Part shown: positions 8,308 through 28,873 of the stretch, piece after piece
How positions within the stretch are numbered: the first letter of the stretch is position 1
Layout of the letters: every line of letters begins with the position of its first letter
Position numbers and translations under genes: made by a program
Source of the DNA: a phage
Sequence record: PZ583743.1
DNA: 64,000 nt
Reading direction: 5' to 3' (one strand)
The notes under the pieces: generated by a model
The model's input: the letters and a program-made list of their open reading frames with translations, nothing else
Told to the model about the DNA's origin: nothing
The model's database searches: none

Positions 8308-8622
8308 CTAAAAGAAACTTCTTTCACAATTTTTTCCACTGAACCATGCGCTCACTGCTTTCTTAGTCTCAGGAGCAGTGTTATCCATAAACCATTCAAA
8401 GGCAGCCTTTTTATGATTCTGGAGGGCTTCTCGGGCTTTAATCTGCTCACGGTCTATTAACACTAACATATGAGCCTTTCTTGTCACCATGGGCTTCTTA
8501 TGATTTTTTGAATACTCCCAGTCATTTGTCCATCGCATTGTCGTTGCGAACTTAAATACTGCTTCTTTAATTTTAGTTTCGTAAATTTCACGAGCCTTTG
8601 AGTATAACATCATTACCTCCAT
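8308..8622 (-). CDS. Hypothetical protein, ~101-104 aa
   Basis: Track ORF; likely start at the second ATG pair (8611-8613) which has GGAGGT upstream. Confidence 0.5.
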   Translation of the reverse strand: MEVMMLYSKAREIYETKIKEAVFKFATTMRWTNDWEYSKNHKKPMVTRKAHMLVLIDREQIKAREALQNHKKAAFEWFMDNTAPETKKAVSAWFSGKNCERSFF

Positions 8623-8711: not shown

Positions 8712-9680
8712 TTATTTCAGAAGAGTAACCTCAGCAATTTCTTCCCAACCGTTTTTGTCGGTCATAATAAAGTCAGCAAGATAAAGAGCAGTACGCAGTG
8801 AAACATTGCGTAAACGATTAACATTAACTTTCATCCATGATAATGCTTTATAAGTTTCTTCATCAGAAAGACCGCGCTTTTGCATCATGTCAGTTGAAAG
8901 AATAACATCTTCAACCCTGACCATAATTTCTTCATTAGTGTGAACACCCAAATCCAAATAAACCGAGCGGGACACTAATGCTTGTAAATGTGGAGCAAGT
9001 TTAGTACCACGGTCTAATTCGCGGTCAATGTCAACGTTTGTGATAAAAACAATCGTTCCTTTAAATTCAAACTCACGCTCAATGCCTTTTTCTTCTAAGT
9101 AAGAAGATGCGGTGCTCCAGCAGACTTTACGGGTCTCTCCAGTGTCCAGAGCAGCTTTCAGAAGATTAAGAATGTCCATATCAGAGAAAACATCCACATC
9201 ATCAATCAAAAGGACAGAATTCTCTTCACGATTATTCCAAAGCTGTTCATAAAGACCGATACCAGAGATTTTACCATTAATGCTTTTATATTCAATGTAT
9301 CCATTATCATTTGCTTTATTCAAAGCTTTATCTAAAGAATACGTTTTACCAATACCCGCCGCACCAGAGATAATTAATGAACGAATATTTCCGTTAATAA
9401 TACCATTCGTCATCATTCCCATAACATTAAATCTTTTATTAATGCGGGTTTTCATATCTTCATATGATTCTTTAACTTCTTCAACTTTTACACCATCATA
9501 TGAAATGTCTGATTTGTAAACCCAAACACCGCGACGCTTACCGTCAATTTCAACAAAAACTTTACCATCTCCTTGTGCATCTACCGGAGCATTATCTGGG
9601 AACCATTCACCTAAGAGCTCAAAAGTTCCAGAGATTTCTTTACCGAAGTAGATACCCTTATTGATAGTTACAGTTTTCAT
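8712..9680 (-). CDS. P-loop NTPase (Walker A GAAGIGKT, Walker B LLIDDVD)
   Basis: Track start is TTG at 9690-9692; in-frame ATG at 9678-9680 (MKTVTINKG) with GGAG upstream. Confidence 0.65.
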   Translation of the reverse strand: MKTVTINKGIYFGKEISGTFELLGEWFPDNAPVDAQGDGKVFVEIDGKRRGVWVYKSDISYDGVKVEEVKESYEDMKTRINKRFNVMGMMTNGIINGNIRSLIISGAAGIGKTYSLDKALNKANDNGYIEYKSINGKISGIGLYEQLWNNREENSVLLIDDVDVFSDMDILNLLKAALDTGETRKVCWSTASSYLEEKGIEREFEFKGTIVFITNVDIDRELDRGTKLAPHLQALVSRSVYLDLGVHTNEEIMVRVEDVILSTDMMQKRGLSDEETYKALSWMKVNVNRLRNVSLRTALYLADFIMTDKNGWEEIAEVTLLK

Positions 9681-9716
9681 TTTATTCTCCAATTTTACAT
9701 TTGTTTTGATAGGGTA

Positions 9717-9746
9717 ATAGTATCACACTACTACCCTGCTGTAAAC
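9717..9746 (-). promoter_or_regulatory. Early-type promoter (GTTTAC, 18 nt, TACTAT)
   Basis: -35 at 9741-9746, -10 at 9717-9722; upstream of the ATPase gene. Confidence 0.5.
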
Positions 9747-9749
9747 AAT

Positions 9750-10013
9750 TTATTTTAATGTTTGCCAAATTTTTACTGCTTCGCGACGAGATACTTCTAC
9801 GGCGCCAAGTTCTATAGCTTTTTGGCGTCGCCGAGCGTGTAAGTCATAATGTTTAATGCGTTTATCTTGAAACCAAGAACGTTTCATTCCTATTGCTTCT
9901 GCCATTTCATGAAGCTCTTCAATATCTCCATCAGTGAACATATGACAATTTTTAGTTGGATGACCGCGAAGTTTCCATCCATGATTCATTAAAACATCTA
10001 CGTAAACTGTCAT
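9750..10013 (-). CDS. Hypothetical protein, 87 aa (HYDL...RR motif; possibly a DUF4031-like small domain)
   Basis: Track ORF; family assignment is from memory of the motif only. Confidence 0.5.
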   Translation of the reverse strand: MTVYVDVLMNHGWKLRGHPTKNCHMFTDGDIEELHEMAEAIGMKRSWFQDKRIKHYDLHARRRQKAIELGAVEVSRREAVKIWQTLK

Positions 10014-10159
10014 TGATTCTTCTCCAAATAAGTTTCGATAATTTTCTGAGCGAGATAAACTGCATTATCTTCAGTTGCATCTTCTAAGAAACTTTCAAAA
10101 CACTCTGAAATTTCTTCTGTGTCAATCAACTTTTTTACTTCAATTGGTGTAATTTTCAT
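10010..10159 (-). CDS. Small hypothetical protein (~49 aa)
   Basis: Track ORF 10010..10228 extends through an early promoter; first ATG downstream of the promoter is at 10157-10159 (MKITPIEVKK). Confidence 0.35.
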   Translation of the reverse strand: MKITPIEVKKLIDTEEISECFESFLEDATEDNAVYLAQKIIETYLEKNQ

Positions 10160-10196
10160 TTTGTTTTTCCGTTTAAGTGTTTGTTTTGATAGTTGT

Positions 10197-10226
10197 ATAG
10201 TACCATAAAGCTTTATGCTTGTAAAC
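10197..10226 (-). promoter_or_regulatory. Early-type promoter (GTTTAC, 18 nt, TACTAT)
   Basis: -35 at 10221-10226, -10 at 10197-10202. Confidence 0.5.
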
Positions 10227-10244
10227 AATTTTGTGAAAAATTTT

Positions 10245-10276
10245 TGAAATAAAAAAGGGAGCCCGAAGGCTCCCTA
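10245..10276 (-). terminator. Rho-independent terminator
   Basis: Hairpin GGGAGCC-CGAA-GGCTCCC followed by a T-run on the minus strand. Confidence 0.6.
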
Positions 10277-11290
10277 TCATTTATAATAACTTCGGTGGTT
10301 TTCAAGATAAACCCTCTCAAGGAAGTCATCCCAAAAACCCATGTCTACTTTTTGCTGCATACCGTTCTTAGAAGCTTCAGTAGATGCTGCTTCTACTTGA
10401 TCGACCACATCTTCCAAAAACTCTTGAACCGTTTTAAATGGATGTTTACCCAACTTCACGTCGAGAATAAATGGAGCATCTTGGAGTGGATAAACCAAGT
10501 CACCAGTTTTGTAAATTTCCAATAGTTGGAGTCCACCACGGCAAGCATGACTCAGAGCTTTCCAGTCAATACCTTCATTGGCTTCGGCCTTACGAGCACG
10601 TTCACCGTATTCAGCATCTAATTTGTTCAGTGACTGCTTAAGCTCAATAAGAGAAAGCGTTGTCTGATATTTACGACCCAACACTGTGTAGAACGTCTGT
10701 GGGCCTGTTTTCTCATGATTATGGAATACCCATTCGCAGAATTCGTTCTCTGGAAGACGATGCTTAATATCTTCAACTTTAGTACGACGTTGCTTAATGG
10801 AACCGTCTTCTTGATAATCAACCCACTGGTCAGGGATTTGATTAACTACTTTCAATACATCACGCAATGCAGCCAAACGAGAACCCTTAACACCATATTT
10901 AGAAGCTTGCTTGCGGACATATCCTAAATAGGATTTCATGTTAGTCGTATAAAAACGAGAACGATTGTCTTGAATAAACTTCCATACATCAGGCAAATCA
11001 GATTTAACCACTAGCTCAGGTGGAGTGTGAAGCATATCCAATGCTACAGTTTCACCATCTGCCGCTAATTTAAAGAAATATTTAAGACTGTATAGTTCAT
11101 GGTCAATATCATCTTTAGTGTTTTTAGATGATGTGTTGTTAGTGTTTTTACTCATATGCTCTTTAACATTTCCGATAAGAATATCACGAGCAAGAGGAAC
11201 AAAGATTTCTTTAAAATCTACATCAGATTCTGGAGTAGAAGTTCCATAAAGATGACTACCAAAATAGCTTTTCATTACTGTTTTCATCAT
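10277..11290 (-). CDS. Pol-beta-superfamily nucleotidyltransferase-like protein, 337 aa
   Basis: N-terminal FGSHLYGTSTPESDVDF fits the G[SG]-x(9-13)-D-x-D minimal nucleotidyltransferase signature; rest of protein unassigned. Confidence 0.6.
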   Translation of the reverse strand: MMKTVMKSYFGSHLYGTSTPESDVDFKEIFVPLARDILIGNVKEHMSKNTNNTSSKNTKDDIDHELYSLKYFFKLAADGETVALDMLHTPPELVVKSDLPDVWKFIQDNRSRFYTTNMKSYLGYVRKQASKYGVKGSRLAALRDVLKVVNQIPDQWVDYQEDGSIKQRRTKVEDIKHRLPENEFCEWVFHNHEKTGPQTFYTVLGRKYQTTLSLIELKQSLNKLDAEYGERARKAEANEGIDWKALSHACRGGLQLLEIYKTGDLVYPLQDAPFILDVKLGKHPFKTVQEFLEDVVDQVEAASTEASKNGMQQKVDMGFWDDFLERVYLENHRSYYK

Positions 11291-11760
11291 TCAGCCTTAT
11301 ATTCAATAACAGGACATACTTTAGCTTTACGGGCTTTTAAAAATTCGACGATAATAGATTTCTTGGGTTGAATAGGAGGTAAACCTTTATACGCCCTATC
11401 AATATTTTCTACATGTAAAGCATAATCCTTTTTCCATTTATAATCTTTATATTTTTCATGCAGTTGTGCAGGAATAACAAATGAACCAATAATAAGTAAA
11501 ACAAGCAAAATGGCAAGTATAAATGCTGATGGAATAAGAGTCCATAAACTACCAAAAATAAGCCATTTCTGCATGATTTCTGCGCAGATAATAGTTAGAC
11601 CTGCGAGTATAGTACATCCGAAAAAAGAAACGAAAAATGTAGGAATAACAATAGACCAAAAATATGCACACAGTGTCTTAGGTCGTTTCCATTCGTCGTT
11701 AAACATTTTAAATAATTTATAATGCCAAGAGTTTTCATTAATAACCATAATTATAATCAT
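11287..11760 (-). CDS. Hypothetical membrane protein, 157 aa
   Basis: Multiple hydrophobic segments in the translation. Confidence 0.5.
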   Translation of the reverse strand: MIIIMVINENSWHYKLFKMFNDEWKRPKTLCAYFWSIVIPTFFVSFFGCTILAGLTIICAEIMQKWLIFGSLWTLIPSAFILAILLVLLIIGSFVIPAQLHEKYKDYKWKKDYALHVENIDRAYKGLPPIQPKKSIIVEFLKARKAKVCPVIEYKAE

Positions 11761-12278
11761 CCTTTCATTGAAGGTGTAACGTATGTTAAATACTTAATCA
11801 TAGCCTCAGCTTCTGATTTTGACAATGAAATTTCTTCACCGTTTTGGCGAATAGAAACAAAATCTGGATGACGGTCACCGCTAGCCTTTAAAACACACAT
11901 GTAAGTATCAACTTCGCCTTCAATATTTGAAATGATTGAAGCAGTTCCACATGAATGTGGTTGTTGATAAACTAATACAGCTTTTCTTCCGCCGTTTGAC
12001 TGTTCATAAACTTTTAACACATCAAACAAATCACTTCTTTTATCAATAGCTAAGATGTTGTTTTCATCTTCAATGTTAAATCCTTCGGATACTTCATAAA
12101 GTGTCACCCATAAATCACCTATATCAATAGTAGCATTTTCCTTTCCATGACTTTCAAGAGCGTGACAAATTTTCTTGATTTCGTCATAACTCATTTTAAT
12201 AATATCATCTCCTTGAATAAGGAAGATGTCATTTTTAAATTCAACGCGAATTAAACCGCTTCCACTTGAAATAAACAT
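11757..12278 (-). CDS. Hypothetical protein, 173 aa (paralogue of the next gene)
   Basis: ATG at 12276-12278; shares GFNIE motif and C-terminal YLxxVxPxM tail with the 12285..12827 product. Confidence 0.55.
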   Translation of the reverse strand: MFISSGSGLIRVEFKNDIFLIQGDDIIKMSYDEIKKICHALESHGKENATIDIGDLWVTLYEVSEGFNIEDENNILAIDKRSDLFDVLKVYEQSNGGRKAVLVYQQPHSCGTASIISNIEGEVDTYMCVLKASGDRHPDFVSIRQNGEEISLSKSEAEAMIKYLTYVTPSMKG

Positions 12279-12284
12279 ATTTCC

Positions 12285-12827
12285 TCACTTTGAAACCATA
12301 GTTGGAATGACAGAATCAAGATAAGTCTTTAGCGCAATAGCTTCGTCTTTGGTAAATGTGACAATATGTGATCGAAAATCATCAATTTGACGAATAGTTA
12401 AGACATCTCCCTCTTCATAACATTTTGATACATTTAAAAGAGTTTCATCATTCTGATCGCACTGATCGCAAGCGTTAGTAATAATAGCATTGCAATTTTT
12501 GAGCCATTTTAAACTATGTTTTCTTTCATTAGAATAATAAAAATATTTAATCTTAGCTATAAAATTATCCCAATTATTAATTGATAAACATATTGACTCG
12601 CTTTCAATATTAAATCCTGGGCATAAAGAATAAAAATGAATTTTATGCTCATCATTAATGCTTACAATTTTATCAGTGTAAGGTTTTTCAATTTGGGTTA
12701 AATGAATAATTTCGCTAGGCGTAAAATATAGCATATCGTCTTCTTGCGTCAAACGATACATATTATTCACTTTTTCTATAGCCAATTCACCAAAAAGTGA
12801 ACTAACTTCTAGTACTAATCGTTTCAT
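12285..12827 (-). CDS. Hypothetical protein, ~180 aa (paralogue of the previous gene)
   Basis: Track start is GTG at 12849-12851; in-frame ATG at 12825-12827 (MKRLVLEV). Confidence 0.55.
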   Translation of the reverse strand: MKRLVLEVSSLFGELAIEKVNNMYRLTQEDDMLYFTPSEIIHLTQIEKPYTDKIVSINDEHKIHFYSLCPGFNIESESICLSINNWDNFIAKIKYFYYSNERKHSLKWLKNCNAIITNACDQCDQNDETLLNVSKCYEEGDVLTIRQIDDFRSHIVTFTKDEAIALKTYLDSVIPTMVSK

Positions 12828-12986
12828 ATTGATTCTCTTCGACTCACTCACAATTACATACTCCTTTGAATAATATCAATAATGTTGTTCACTAGATTAT
12901 AAGTAAACATTGGGTAATTATATTGAATCATCACATACACAACAAACAAAATTTTCATTCTCTTCTCCTTGGCAGTTGACAAGATT

Positions 12987-28045: not shown

Positions 28046-28121
28046 TGGTCGAGGCAGTAGGGATCGAACCTACGACCTAGGACTTAGAAGGTCCTTGCTC
28101 TTCCTTCTGAGCTATGCCTCG
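28046..28121 (-). tRNA. tRNA-Arg (anticodon UCU), CCA encoded
   Basis: Folds by eye: acceptor CGAGGCA/TGCCTCG, loop CTTCTAA, T-arm GTAGG-TTCGATC-CCTAC. Confidence 0.85.
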
Positions 28122-28125
28122 GATT

Positions 28126-28200
28126 TGGCGGACGTGATAGGATTCGAACCTATAACCAATCGCTTAACAGGCGATCGCTCTGCCATTGAGCTACACATCC
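28126..28200 (-). tRNA. tRNA-Asn (anticodon GUU), CCA encoded
   Basis: Acceptor GGATGTG/CACGTCC, loop CTGTTAA, T-arm ATAGG-TTCGAAT-CCTAT. Confidence 0.8.
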
Positions 28201-28204
28201 AAAT

Positions 28205-28291
28205 TGGTGGGGAGTGGTGGAGTCGAACCACCCGAGTCGCAATGACAATGGATTTACAGTCCACACCGCTACCTCTACGGGATAACTCCCC
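28205..28291 (-). tRNA. tRNA-Tyr (anticodon GUA), class II long variable arm, CCA encoded
   Basis: 87 nt; loop CTGTAAA identical to E. coli tRNA-Tyr; T-arm GGTGG-TTCGACT-CCACC. Confidence 0.8.
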
Positions 28292-28300
28292 AAATTAATT

Positions 28301-28375
28301 TGGTGGCCCTGGGTGGAATTGAACCACCATCTGGCGATTATGAGTCGCTTGCTTGAACCTTCCAGCTACAGGGCC
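28301..28375 (-). tRNA. tRNA with CAU anticodon (Ile2-lysidine type or Met), CCA encoded
   Basis: Acceptor GGCCCTG/CAGGGCC, loop CTCATAA; sits at the T4 tRNA-Ile position. Confidence 0.8.
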
Positions 28376-28376
28376 T

Positions 28377-28452
28377 TGGTGCTGATTGACGGAATCGAAC
28401 CGCCGACCTTCTCATTACAAGTGAGTTGCTCTACCTACTGAGCTAAATCAGC
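28377..28452 (-). tRNA. tRNA-Thr (anticodon UGU), CCA encoded
   Basis: Acceptor GCTGATT/AATCAGC, loop CTTGTAA. Confidence 0.85.
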
Positions 28453-28457
28453 AAAAC

Positions 28458-28547
28458 TGGCGGAGGCGATAGGATTTGAACCTATGAGTCGCCGGAGCGA
28501 CTGCCGGTTTTCAAGACCGGTGCATTAAACCACTCTGCCACGCCTCC
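28458..28547 (-). tRNA. tRNA-Ser (anticodon UGA), long variable arm, CCA encoded
   Basis: 90 nt; loop CTTGAAA; T-arm ATAGG-TTCAAAT-CCTAT. Confidence 0.85.
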
Positions 28548-28549
28548 AG

Positions 28550-28623
28550 TCTCCATACAAGGATTTGAACCTTGGACCTCCTGATCCCAAATCAGGCGCT
28601 CTACCAAACTGAGCTACACGGAG
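28550..28623 (-). tRNA. tRNA-Pro (anticodon UGG), CCA not encoded
   Basis: Acceptor CTCCGTG/TATGGAG, loop TTTGGGA; 3' end abuts tRNA-Ser (dimeric precursor arrangement). Confidence 0.8.
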
Positions 28624-28633
28624 TAAATTAAAT

Positions 28634-28707
<74 letters not shown>

Positions 28708-28712
28708 AAATT

Positions 28713-28799
28713 TGGTGCGAGAAGTGGGACTCGAACCCACAAGGAAATCATTCCGCAGCATTTTAAGTGCTGTGCCTTTACCAATTTGACCATTCTCGC
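28713..28799 (-). tRNA. tRNA-Leu (anticodon UAA), long variable arm, CCA encoded
   Basis: 87 nt; acceptor GCGAGAA/TTCTCGC, loop CTTAAAA. Confidence 0.85.
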
Positions 28800-28800
28800 G

Positions 28801-28873
28801 CTGGGAATAAAGGACTCGAACCTTTGCATCCTGGAATCAAAATCCAGTGCCTTACCAACTTGGCTAATTCCCA
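28801..28873 (-). tRNA. tRNA-Gln (anticodon UUG), CCA not encoded
   Basis: Acceptor TGGGAAT/ATTCCCA, loop TTTTGAT; 3' end one nt from tRNA-Leu (dimeric precursor arrangement). Confidence 0.8.

Follow-up and report, generated by a model that had tools for sequence, protein, structure and literature searches.

A T-even phage nrdC.10-nrdC.11 stretch encodes a predicted RlaP-family nucleotidyltransferase with a possible role in RNA repair

The stretch described here, positions 8712-11290 of a 64,000-nucleotide window of phage DNA (sequence record PZ583743.1; 'the window' is this whole length), carries a nucleotidyltransferase (NTase) gene, a P-loop ATPase gene and two small genes between them (Table 1). 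The window comes from a T2/T4-like Tequatrovirus with a G+C content of about 35%, and sequence comparison identifies the stretch as nrdC.10-nrdC.11 of a T-even phage, part of the variable early region nrdC-mobD. A query of 4 kb surrounding the two genes is 98.9% identical to Escherichia phage EC.W14-2, is colinear with the nrdC.10 and nrdC.11 annotations of relatives and matches 762 phage records, nearly all of them T4-like phages (Tequatrovirus) of Escherichia, Shigella or Yersinia. The RefSeq relative NC_054914 (97.5% identical) gives the T4 names NrdC.10 and NrdC.11 to the two larger genes and annotates a 'DUF4031 domain-containing protein' and a 49-amino-acid (aa) hypothetical protein between them. 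The three open reading frames (ORFs) for the ATPase, the DUF4031 protein and the NTase, first listed in an initial annotation of this DNA, are all present on the minus strand with the limits proposed there. By tblastn against 50,697 phage records, NrdC.11 was found in 1514, NrdC.10 in 1312 and DUF4031 in 327, and therefore none of the three is a chance ORF. The identifications of nrdC.11 and nrdC.10 are sound, but they have been published before: Nolan et al. 2006 (PMC1524935) had already assigned nrdC.11 to the COG3541 nucleotidyltransferases and nrdC.10 to the AAA ATPases. The window thus holds one more copy of nrdC.11 and no new kind of element. Many GenBank records mislabel nrdC.1 to nrdC.11 as 'thioredoxin' because of the gene names.

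Table 1. Features of the nrdC.10-nrdC.11 stretch, numbered by position in the window
Feature	Position	Strand	Description
nrdC.11	10277..11290	-	337-aa RlaP-family (PF10127) Pol-beta nucleotidyltransferase; last gene of an early transcription unit
NTase motif FGSHLYGTSTPESDVDF, NrdC.11 aa 10-26	11213..11263	-	hG[GS] loop and DxD metal-binding carboxylates; G11, S12, D23 and D25 invariant
DDIDHE, NrdC.11 aa 60-65	11096..11113	-	on a beta strand; D63 invariant, aligns with the third conserved Asp of canonical RlaP
DWKALSHACR, NrdC.11 aa 242-251	10538..10567	-	C-terminal helical domain; K244, H248 and R251 invariant
Intrinsic terminator	10256..10275	-	directly 3' of the nrdC.11 stop; GGGAGCC-TTCG-GGCTCCC and T run; 8-bp stem, 6 G-C pairs
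Early promoter 1	10197..10226	-	T4-type GTTTAC-N17-TGGTACTAT; drives orf49 and DUF4031; drives nrdC.10 directly in T6
orf49	10010..10159	-	49-aa acidic protein (isoelectric point, pI, 4.2), phrog_6888; stop overlaps the DUF4031 start (ATGA)
DUF4031 gene	9750..10013	-	87 aa, PF13223; basic, pI 9.5
Early promoter 2	9717..9746	-	T4-type GTTTAC-N17-TGATACTAT; downstream edge of the inserted cassette; drives nrdC.10
nrdC.10	8712..9680	-	322-aa AAA+ ATPase (phrog_1250); N-terminal beta-rich region of about 70 aa
Walker A GAAGIGKT, NrdC.10 aa 106-113	9342..9365	-	G106, G109, G111, K112 and T113 invariant
Walker B LLIDDVD, NrdC.10 aa 157-163	9192..9212	-	
Sensor-1 FITN of NrdC.10	9036..9047	-	
Invariant arginines of NrdC.10	R238 8964..8975; R291/R296 8790..8813	-	

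NrdC.11 (337 aa; N-terminus MMKTVMKSYFGSHLYGTSTPESDVDF) is 99% identical to the phage T2 protein and, as far as its homologues can tell, is a complete, full-length conserved enzyme. An exhaustive HMMER search against 1.84 billion cluster representatives found 3185 matches at E<=0.001, 818 of them at E<=1e-30, and among the best matches listed nearly all are 300-360 aa long and aligned end to end. In an alignment of 71 homologues (34-55% identity), G11, S12, S22, D23, D25, N57, D63, Y132, R231, K244, H248, R251, P268 and K279 are invariant. The Pol-beta signature is thereby present in all its parts, with G11 and S12 in the hG[GS] loop, D23 and D25 in the DxD pair and D63 as the third carboxylate. 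The initial annotation had called 10277..11290 a Pol-beta-superfamily NTase and had staked that call on the conservation of the GS and Asp residues and on profile searches; the residues are invariant, the protein falls above threshold in an NTase family, RlaP (PF10127), and its model has an NTase fold, so that the call stands. By contrast, the roughly 300 aa after the motif, which had been left unassigned, are conserved over their whole length in the 818 representatives and divide into core, beta insertion and helical C-terminal domain.

An AlphaFold2 model made from the homologue alignment (predicted local distance difference test, pLDDT, 94.1; predicted template-modelling score, pTM, 0.80) is predicted to begin with an NTase core of beta-alpha type (aa 1-115) and a long helix (119-150), after which come a small insertion of beta-sheet (155-209) and a helical domain at the C-terminus (214-336). 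The model thus has the two-domain layout expected of RlaP, in which an N-terminal NTase and a C-terminal helical domain form a cleft, and K244, H248 and R251 would line this cleft as putative residues for binding nucleoside triphosphate (NTP) or RNA. NrdC.11 matches PF10127, whose full name in Pfam is 'RlaP, RNA repair pathway DNA polymerase beta family', with 40.5 bits (cutoff 23, E=3.3e-10), a match that spans profile positions 23-142 of 249 and only the N-terminal 130 residues or so; homology over the whole length of the profile, including the C-terminal domain, was not found. The same label is carried by all 120 NrdC.11 homologues among the matches listed, and in PHROGs the protein belongs to phrog_388, 'nucleotidyltransferase' (E=2e-135). 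When the NrdC.11 clade was compared with canonical RlaPs by hhalign, the two aligned over 118 N-terminal columns (probability 94.9%, E=4.8e-8), and GS, DxD and the third Asp fell at matching positions; the family has been described as having 'three strictly conserved aspartic acids' (PMC12776372). We consider NrdC.11 very probably an active Pol-beta NTase of the RlaP family. Within that family it is, on these alignments, a divergent sub-clade, the 'cluster 5' in which T4 NrdC.11 was placed by a December 2025 preprint (PMC12776372).

The structural neighbours of the model would also admit a different chemistry, in which NrdC.11 nucleotidylates a host or phage protein or a small molecule, as MNT and AMPylating antitoxins or aminoglycoside NTases do. 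The best PDB matches found by Foldseek are kanamycin nucleotidyltransferase, 3c18 (NTase-like), Hailong HalB, ANT(4'), LinB and Tam41, with probabilities of up to 0.99 and a template-modelling (TM) score of only about 0.3; ANT(3'')(9) and an MNT-HEPN complex are likewise among the neighbours, which are generally two-domain NTases, and the predicted C-terminal domain resembles HEPN-like helical bundles. In sequence, however, the family is RlaP. The NCBIfam MntA model scores 13.1 bits against a cutoff of 60, which led us to reject an MNT/MntA antitoxin, and no PADLOC defence model matches NrdC.11; for the other genes of the region PADLOC returned nothing but a meaningless 15-bit match for a 188-aa protein encoded upstream. 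No HEPN toxin partner gene is annotated near nrdC.11 in the window or in relatives. Membership in the MNT, aminoglycoside-NTase or CD-NTase families, whose fold the initial annotation had cited, therefore gives way to RlaP. As E. coli proteins are not labelled by RlaPs and the operon context described below is one of RNA repair, a protein or small-molecule substrate is very unlikely.

Only the catalytic core of NrdC.11 aligns with canonical RlaP, and the neighbourhoods of the T4-type clade itself were therefore examined. We took in 78 viral and 80 bacterial or archaeal NrdC.11-type loci (the best 80 loci per scan) and scanned the neighbouring ORFs against Pfam. Among 150 neighbours at 50 genome loci, RlaP itself was the commonest family (11), with PNKP_ligase, AAA_33 and Metallophos at four each, RNA 3'-phosphate cyclase at two and Hen1 at one. 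In a metagenome-assembled genome of Asticcacaulis (locus L132, 2088-7802), hen1, pnkp, the NrdC.11-type gene and a canonical RlaP gene (211 bits) are contiguous on one strand. Pnkp lies directly upstream of the NrdC.11-type gene at two further bacterial loci, and at another a kinase-phosphatase-Rnl1 fusion stops four nucleotides before it. Ten ORFs of about 260 aa directly downstream of bacterial NrdC.11-type genes are canonical RlaPs by alignment, and in bacteria the succession of an NrdC.11-type gene and a canonical RlaP paralogue is frequent. Two different RlaPs in one repair operon may reflect a division of labour or a heteromer. At 34 distant viral loci (119 neighbours), we found RtcB twice, an Rnl1-type ligase twice, RNA_ligase twice, AAA_33 kinases three times and a PNKP phosphatase once. 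The NrdC.11 homologue on one contig of a distant phage has genes for an HD-kinase and an Rnl1-type ligase directly upstream, on a second an RNA_ligase gene lies directly downstream of it and on a third a ligase-like gene and RtcB follow. These neighbours in bacteria and distant phages give the T4-type clade its own guilt-by-association link to RNA repair, and the placement of NrdC.11-type genes in hen1-pnkp operons and beside ligases, RtcB and kinases suggests that their likely target is damaged RNA and not protein. In viral loci of the Aeromonas/Vibrio type and of other large phages, two kinds of gene turn up repeatedly within about 3.5 kb of NrdC.11 homologues: those for salvage of nicotinamide adenine dinucleotide (NAD; NAPRTase/NAMPT, NUDIX, cytidylyltransferase) and SPFH/Band 7 genes. 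The NAD-salvage genes were considered as functional partners and set aside as probably inherited synteny, as in Aeromonas phage 31.

The substrate is suggested by the only members of the family that have been measured, PfRlaP and PaRlaP of Pseudomonas, which add one or two nucleoside or deoxynucleoside monophosphates (NMP or dNMP) to the 3'-OH of RNA and not to DNA or proteins (PMC12776372). These enzymes prefer Mn2+, favour the 3' end of a nicked tRNA anticodon loop over the acceptor 3' end in a mimic and partly restore the aminoacylation of a tRNA without one anticodon-loop nucleotide (PMC12776372). RlaP has accordingly been proposed as an antidote to ribotoxins (RloC) that cut and then excise a nucleotide (PMC12776372), and a comparative study of jumbo phages predicts the same role (PMC7824862). 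By analogy with these enzymes and from the neighbours of its own clade, NrdC.11 probably acts on RNA 3' ends. RlaP family membership, the probable RNA 3'-end substrate and the counter-defence idea are all already known from the literature for NrdC.11. The family is said to have received its name in a 2016 paper by Burroughs and Aravind.

An enzyme acting on RNA 3' ends could also be a general tailing or repair enzyme, which could, for example, restore tRNA CCA ends that had been trimmed or tag host transcripts for degradation and would not be a partner in ligase-based repair of the anticodon loop. Given total RNA from E. coli, bacterial RlaPs label full-length species the size of tRNA and rRNA, and they show little NTP specificity and use deoxyadenosine triphosphate (dATP) efficiently (PMC12776372); moreover, nrdC.11 is expressed from an early promoter alongside host-takeover genes, and in T4-like genomes it adjoins no ligase. 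The preference for the nicked anticodon loop, on the other hand, and the homologues of the clade inside hen1-pnkp operons and ligase/RtcB clusters speak for repair by ligation, and addition that ends after one or two nucleotides is poor for tailing, so that we regard such a role as unlikely. The efficient use of dATP has a further bearing, as Hailong HalB, a fold relative of NrdC.11, makes short DNA fragments that gate HalA (PMC13276650). NrdC.11 might then synthesize short oligonucleotides as a decoy or signal that silences a DNA- or RNA-gated host defence and would have no part in repair. Against this, searches of a PDB set that contained no RlaP crystal structure, with the single proteins and profiles of NrdC.11, NrdC.10 and DUF4031, gave nothing significant, and no sequence relation of NrdC.11 to HalB or to any other PDB chain was detected; on RNA primers, RlaPs add one or two nucleotides only, and they do not use DNA primers; moreover, the genomic context points to repair. 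We therefore hold an oligonucleotide synthase to be extremely improbable.

The initial annotation had also treated the NTase, the DUF4031 gene and the ATPase as one accessory region, and the transcription signals bear on whether they form a module. The ATG of nrdC.11 and the stop of the membrane-protein gene before it share bases (ATGATGA), the nrdC.11 stop is followed directly by a strong intrinsic terminator, and two T4-type early promoters lie between it and nrdC.10 (Table 1). The pattern GTTTAC-N15-19-TAYWNT, which we take to be the T4 early-promoter consensus, has 15 occurrences in the window where 1.3 would be expected, always on the minus strand and between 1923 and 30275, in the early region. 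Transcription reverses its direction near 34 kb, and the sign of the GC skew changes there too. In T6 (L002:2478-2592), the terminator and the first promoter are present and lead straight to nrdC.10; relative to T6, the window has an insertion of orf49, DUF4031 and the second promoter, and the joint lies in a common 'CTATCAA...' just after the -10 element. The insertion-bearing stretch is 9707..10186 on the minus strand, and the two promoters that bound it are near-identical. At least 80% of the inter-gene segment is covered in 137 of 540 matching records, and T4T, T6 and RB32 match only short flanking pieces; short flank pieces of the cassette also match the frd.2/frd.3 region of T4T. At four Klebsiella/Citrobacter-type loci, the DUF4031 cassette sits elsewhere, after nrdC.10. 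A cassette found at differing places and bounded by early promoters looks like the product of promoter-mediated gene shuffling.

The two larger genes are themselves loosely associated. In most T4-like loci nrdC.10 is found downstream of nrdC.11 at a distance of 0.1-3.3 kb, an order that holds down to about 51% NrdC.11 identity in two phage contigs, and in the window the cassette sits exactly between them, as might be expected if the three formed a single system in which an ATPase assists the NTase and a small accessory enzyme takes part. However, about 45 of the 78 viral loci, among them every locus below 50% NrdC.11 identity, have no nrdC.10 within 6 kb of nrdC.11, and in Aeromonas phage 31 the two genes are both present but more than 12 kb apart. 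Most relatives, T6 and RB32 among them, lack the cassette; near the bacterial NrdC.11-type genes neither an NrdC.10 nor a DUF4031 homologue was found, and two DUF4031 neighbourhoods elsewhere contained no NTase. Together with the terminator and the separate promoters, these observations make a single system highly improbable. The three genes thus appear to be neighbours by descent and insertion and not parts of a functional system, and their grouping as a module is abandoned.

The segment between nrdC.11 and nrdC.10 contains two small genes, as had been proposed, and the call of a DUF4031-like domain at 9750..10013 from its HYDL...RR motif was right: the protein matches Pfam PF13223 with E=1.5e-21 (76.8 bits, cutoff 25.6; profile positions 7-73 of 76), with HYDL at aa 55-58 and RRR at aa 61-63. 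The second gene is a 49-aa ORF with an ATG start at 10010..10159 and not the 72-aa ORF with a TTG start (10010..10228) of the ORF list; we rejected the longer form because it would cross the promoter and only its residues 24-72 match phrog_6888. The acidic orf49 product is translationally coupled to the basic DUF4031 protein. All 98 DUF4031 homologues found are stand-alone proteins of about 50-140 aa. The family has invariant D6, H24, Q49, H55, D57 and G70, and the pattern of D6, H24, H55 and D57 suggests a small His/Asp active site, so that DUF4031 would be a small enzyme and orf49 its partner or inhibitor. In two unrelated DUF4031 neighbourhoods, which are phage-like accessory regions, no recurring partner and no NTase was found. 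On a more novel and improbable reading, the orf49-DUF4031 cassette would consist of a new small His/Asp enzyme and an acidic partner with an anti-defence function, and would move between T4-like genomes by recombination within early promoters.

The P-loop ATPase at 8712..9680 was likewise correctly recognized, and NrdC.10 is by its AAA+ motifs, GAAGIGKT and LLIDDVD among them, a bona fide AAA+ ATPase. As annotated in relatives, it starts at the ATG at 9680, after GGAG; the ORF list extends it to a TTG at 9692. The 37 homologues compared (55-89% identity) have in common Walker A and B, FITN, R238, R291, R296 and the N-terminal beta-rich region. Against curated AAA/STAND Pfam models all scores are below cutoff (given in brackets): nSTAND3 22.3 bits (27.2), AAA_16 22.3 (32.6), AAA_14 21.3 (27) and AAA 16.2 (21.2). 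The best PDB profile match is Cdc6 (E=0.11). NrdC.10 has its own family, phrog_1250, which among the matches listed occurs in T4-like and some jumbo phages, and in the two more distant neighbourhoods examined, one from a jumbo phage of Yersinia and one from a Vibrio phage, all genes around the homologue are 'hypothetical'.

Several further features of the window were noted. The membrane-protein gene whose end overlaps the nrdC.11 start (11287..11760, minus strand) encodes a predicted protein of 157 aa of phrog_944, 'moron/host takeover', and most T4-like loci, down to about 25% identity, have a homologue of it upstream of nrdC.11, though not always in the adjacent position. Beyond it, the genes at 11757..12278 (173 aa) and 12285..12851 (188 aa), both on the minus strand, are adjacent paralogues and full-length members of phrog_1502; one of them is labelled 'MobD' in a relative, although no molybdopterin or homing-endonuclease domain was found. 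On the other side, the nrdC.9 product (8308..8622, minus strand) matches Pfam DUF7203 (E=2.6e-15). Ten tRNA genes are clustered at 28046..28873 on the minus strand (Arg-tct, Asn-gtt, Tyr-gta, Met/Ile-cat, Thr-tgt, Ser-tga, Pro-tgg, Gly-tcc, Leu-taa and Gln-ttg). T4 is usually listed with eight tRNA genes, and this phage appears to have additional Asn and Tyr tRNA genes relative to it.

Taken together, these results lead us to propose three independent early units, of which nrdC.11 would refill RNA ends in the repair of tRNA cut by ribotoxins, and we consider this proposal as a whole somewhat probable. The GS loop and D23, D25 and D63 of NrdC.11 would bind two divalent metals and an NTP, and the enzyme would add one or a few untemplated nucleotides to an RNA 3' end. 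With the T4-type Pnkp and RNA ligase of the phage, which are encoded outside the window, it would rebuild tRNAs that had been cut and stripped of a nucleotide by 'smart' host ribotoxins of the RloC type, and this repair would keep translation alive during infection. In the same proposal, nrdC.10 would be a separate AAA+ ATPase with its own early promoter, tied to nrdC.11 only by inherited gene order, and orf49 and DUF4031 would be an optional two-gene cassette, bounded by early promoters and inserted by recombination within promoter sequence. For the step from RNA ends to ribotoxin-damaged tRNA, which draws on the analogy with bacterial RlaPs, we judge the case for and the case against to be about equally strong. 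Several observations weigh against it. Only about 130 N-terminal residues of NrdC.11 align with canonical RlaP; the C-terminal half, including the beta insertion at aa 155-209, is specific to the clade, and substrate choice could therefore differ. No RNA ligase, Pnkp or RtcB gene adjoins nrdC.11 in the window or in T4-like relatives, so that the link to repair depends on homology and on context in other genomes, and most of the 34 distant viral loci have no repair gene nearby either. In T4, the region from nrdC.11 to mobD.3 can be deleted with viability on laboratory hosts (PMC9825161), and no phenotype is known; moreover, the in vivo role of RlaP is termed a proposal by its own authors (PMC12776372). 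Of the anti-defence role that the initial annotation suggested for a nucleotidylating phage enzyme, a narrower form survives. It is an idea that others have published, namely that the phage mends RNA which host ribotoxins have cut, and a protein target is unlikely.

Each of the three units was compared with known systems. NrdC.10 shares Walker A, Walker B, sensor-1 and arginines with AAA+ initiator and clamp-loader ATPases (Cdc6/ORC, Hda/DnaA and RFC), and its weak profile matches, all below curated thresholds, are to Cdc6, Hda, a clamp loader, AAA_14/16/22 and nSTAND3; unlike the Cdc6/Hda/RFC-type ATPases, it has a unique N-terminal beta-rich region. The DUF4031 protein of the window stands alone, as do the other members of its family (PF13223) that we found. 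NrdC.11 resembles canonical RlaP in its above-threshold Pfam match, in its aligned catalytic residues and in the combination of an NTase core with a C-terminal helical domain. It differs in being about 70 aa longer, with the beta insertion and a C-terminal motif of its own, DWKAxSHAxR, and in its genomic setting: in bacteria the NrdC.11-type gene occurs as a second paralogue directly upstream of canonical RlaP, and in T4-like phages nrdC.11 stands alone, away from ligase and kinase genes. Canonical RlaP itself was found in 80 phage records, mostly of jumbo and other large phages, and in none of the Escherichia/Shigella T4-like ones. A by-product of this study is thus the recognition that the T4-type enzyme forms a distinct sub-clade, paired in bacteria with canonical RlaP inside hen1-pnkp operons. 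Hailong HalB and the kanamycin and other aminoglycoside NTases have no detectable sequence relation to NrdC.11 (TM about 0.3), and their substrates differ from the RNA ends proposed here, as HalB synthesizes DNA oligomers and the aminoglycoside NTases act on antibiotics. The closest parallel in purpose is the T4 RNA repair system, in which Pnkp/PseT and Rnl1 act against PrrC: it belongs to the same virus group and would share with NrdC.11 the aim of undoing host tRNA cleavage. Genetic and biochemical proof exists for Pnkp and Rnl1, whose genes lie outside the window and are not adjacent to nrdC.11, whereas the role of NrdC.11 is inferred; RlaP is proposed to supply the nucleotide removed by RloC-type nucleases before ligation. 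RNA repair was first recognized as a viral counter-defence in T4, and if the proposal is true, fill-in by NrdC.11 would be the missing third step beside end-healing and sealing, and would explain the retention of nrdC.11 in some 1,500 sequenced phages.

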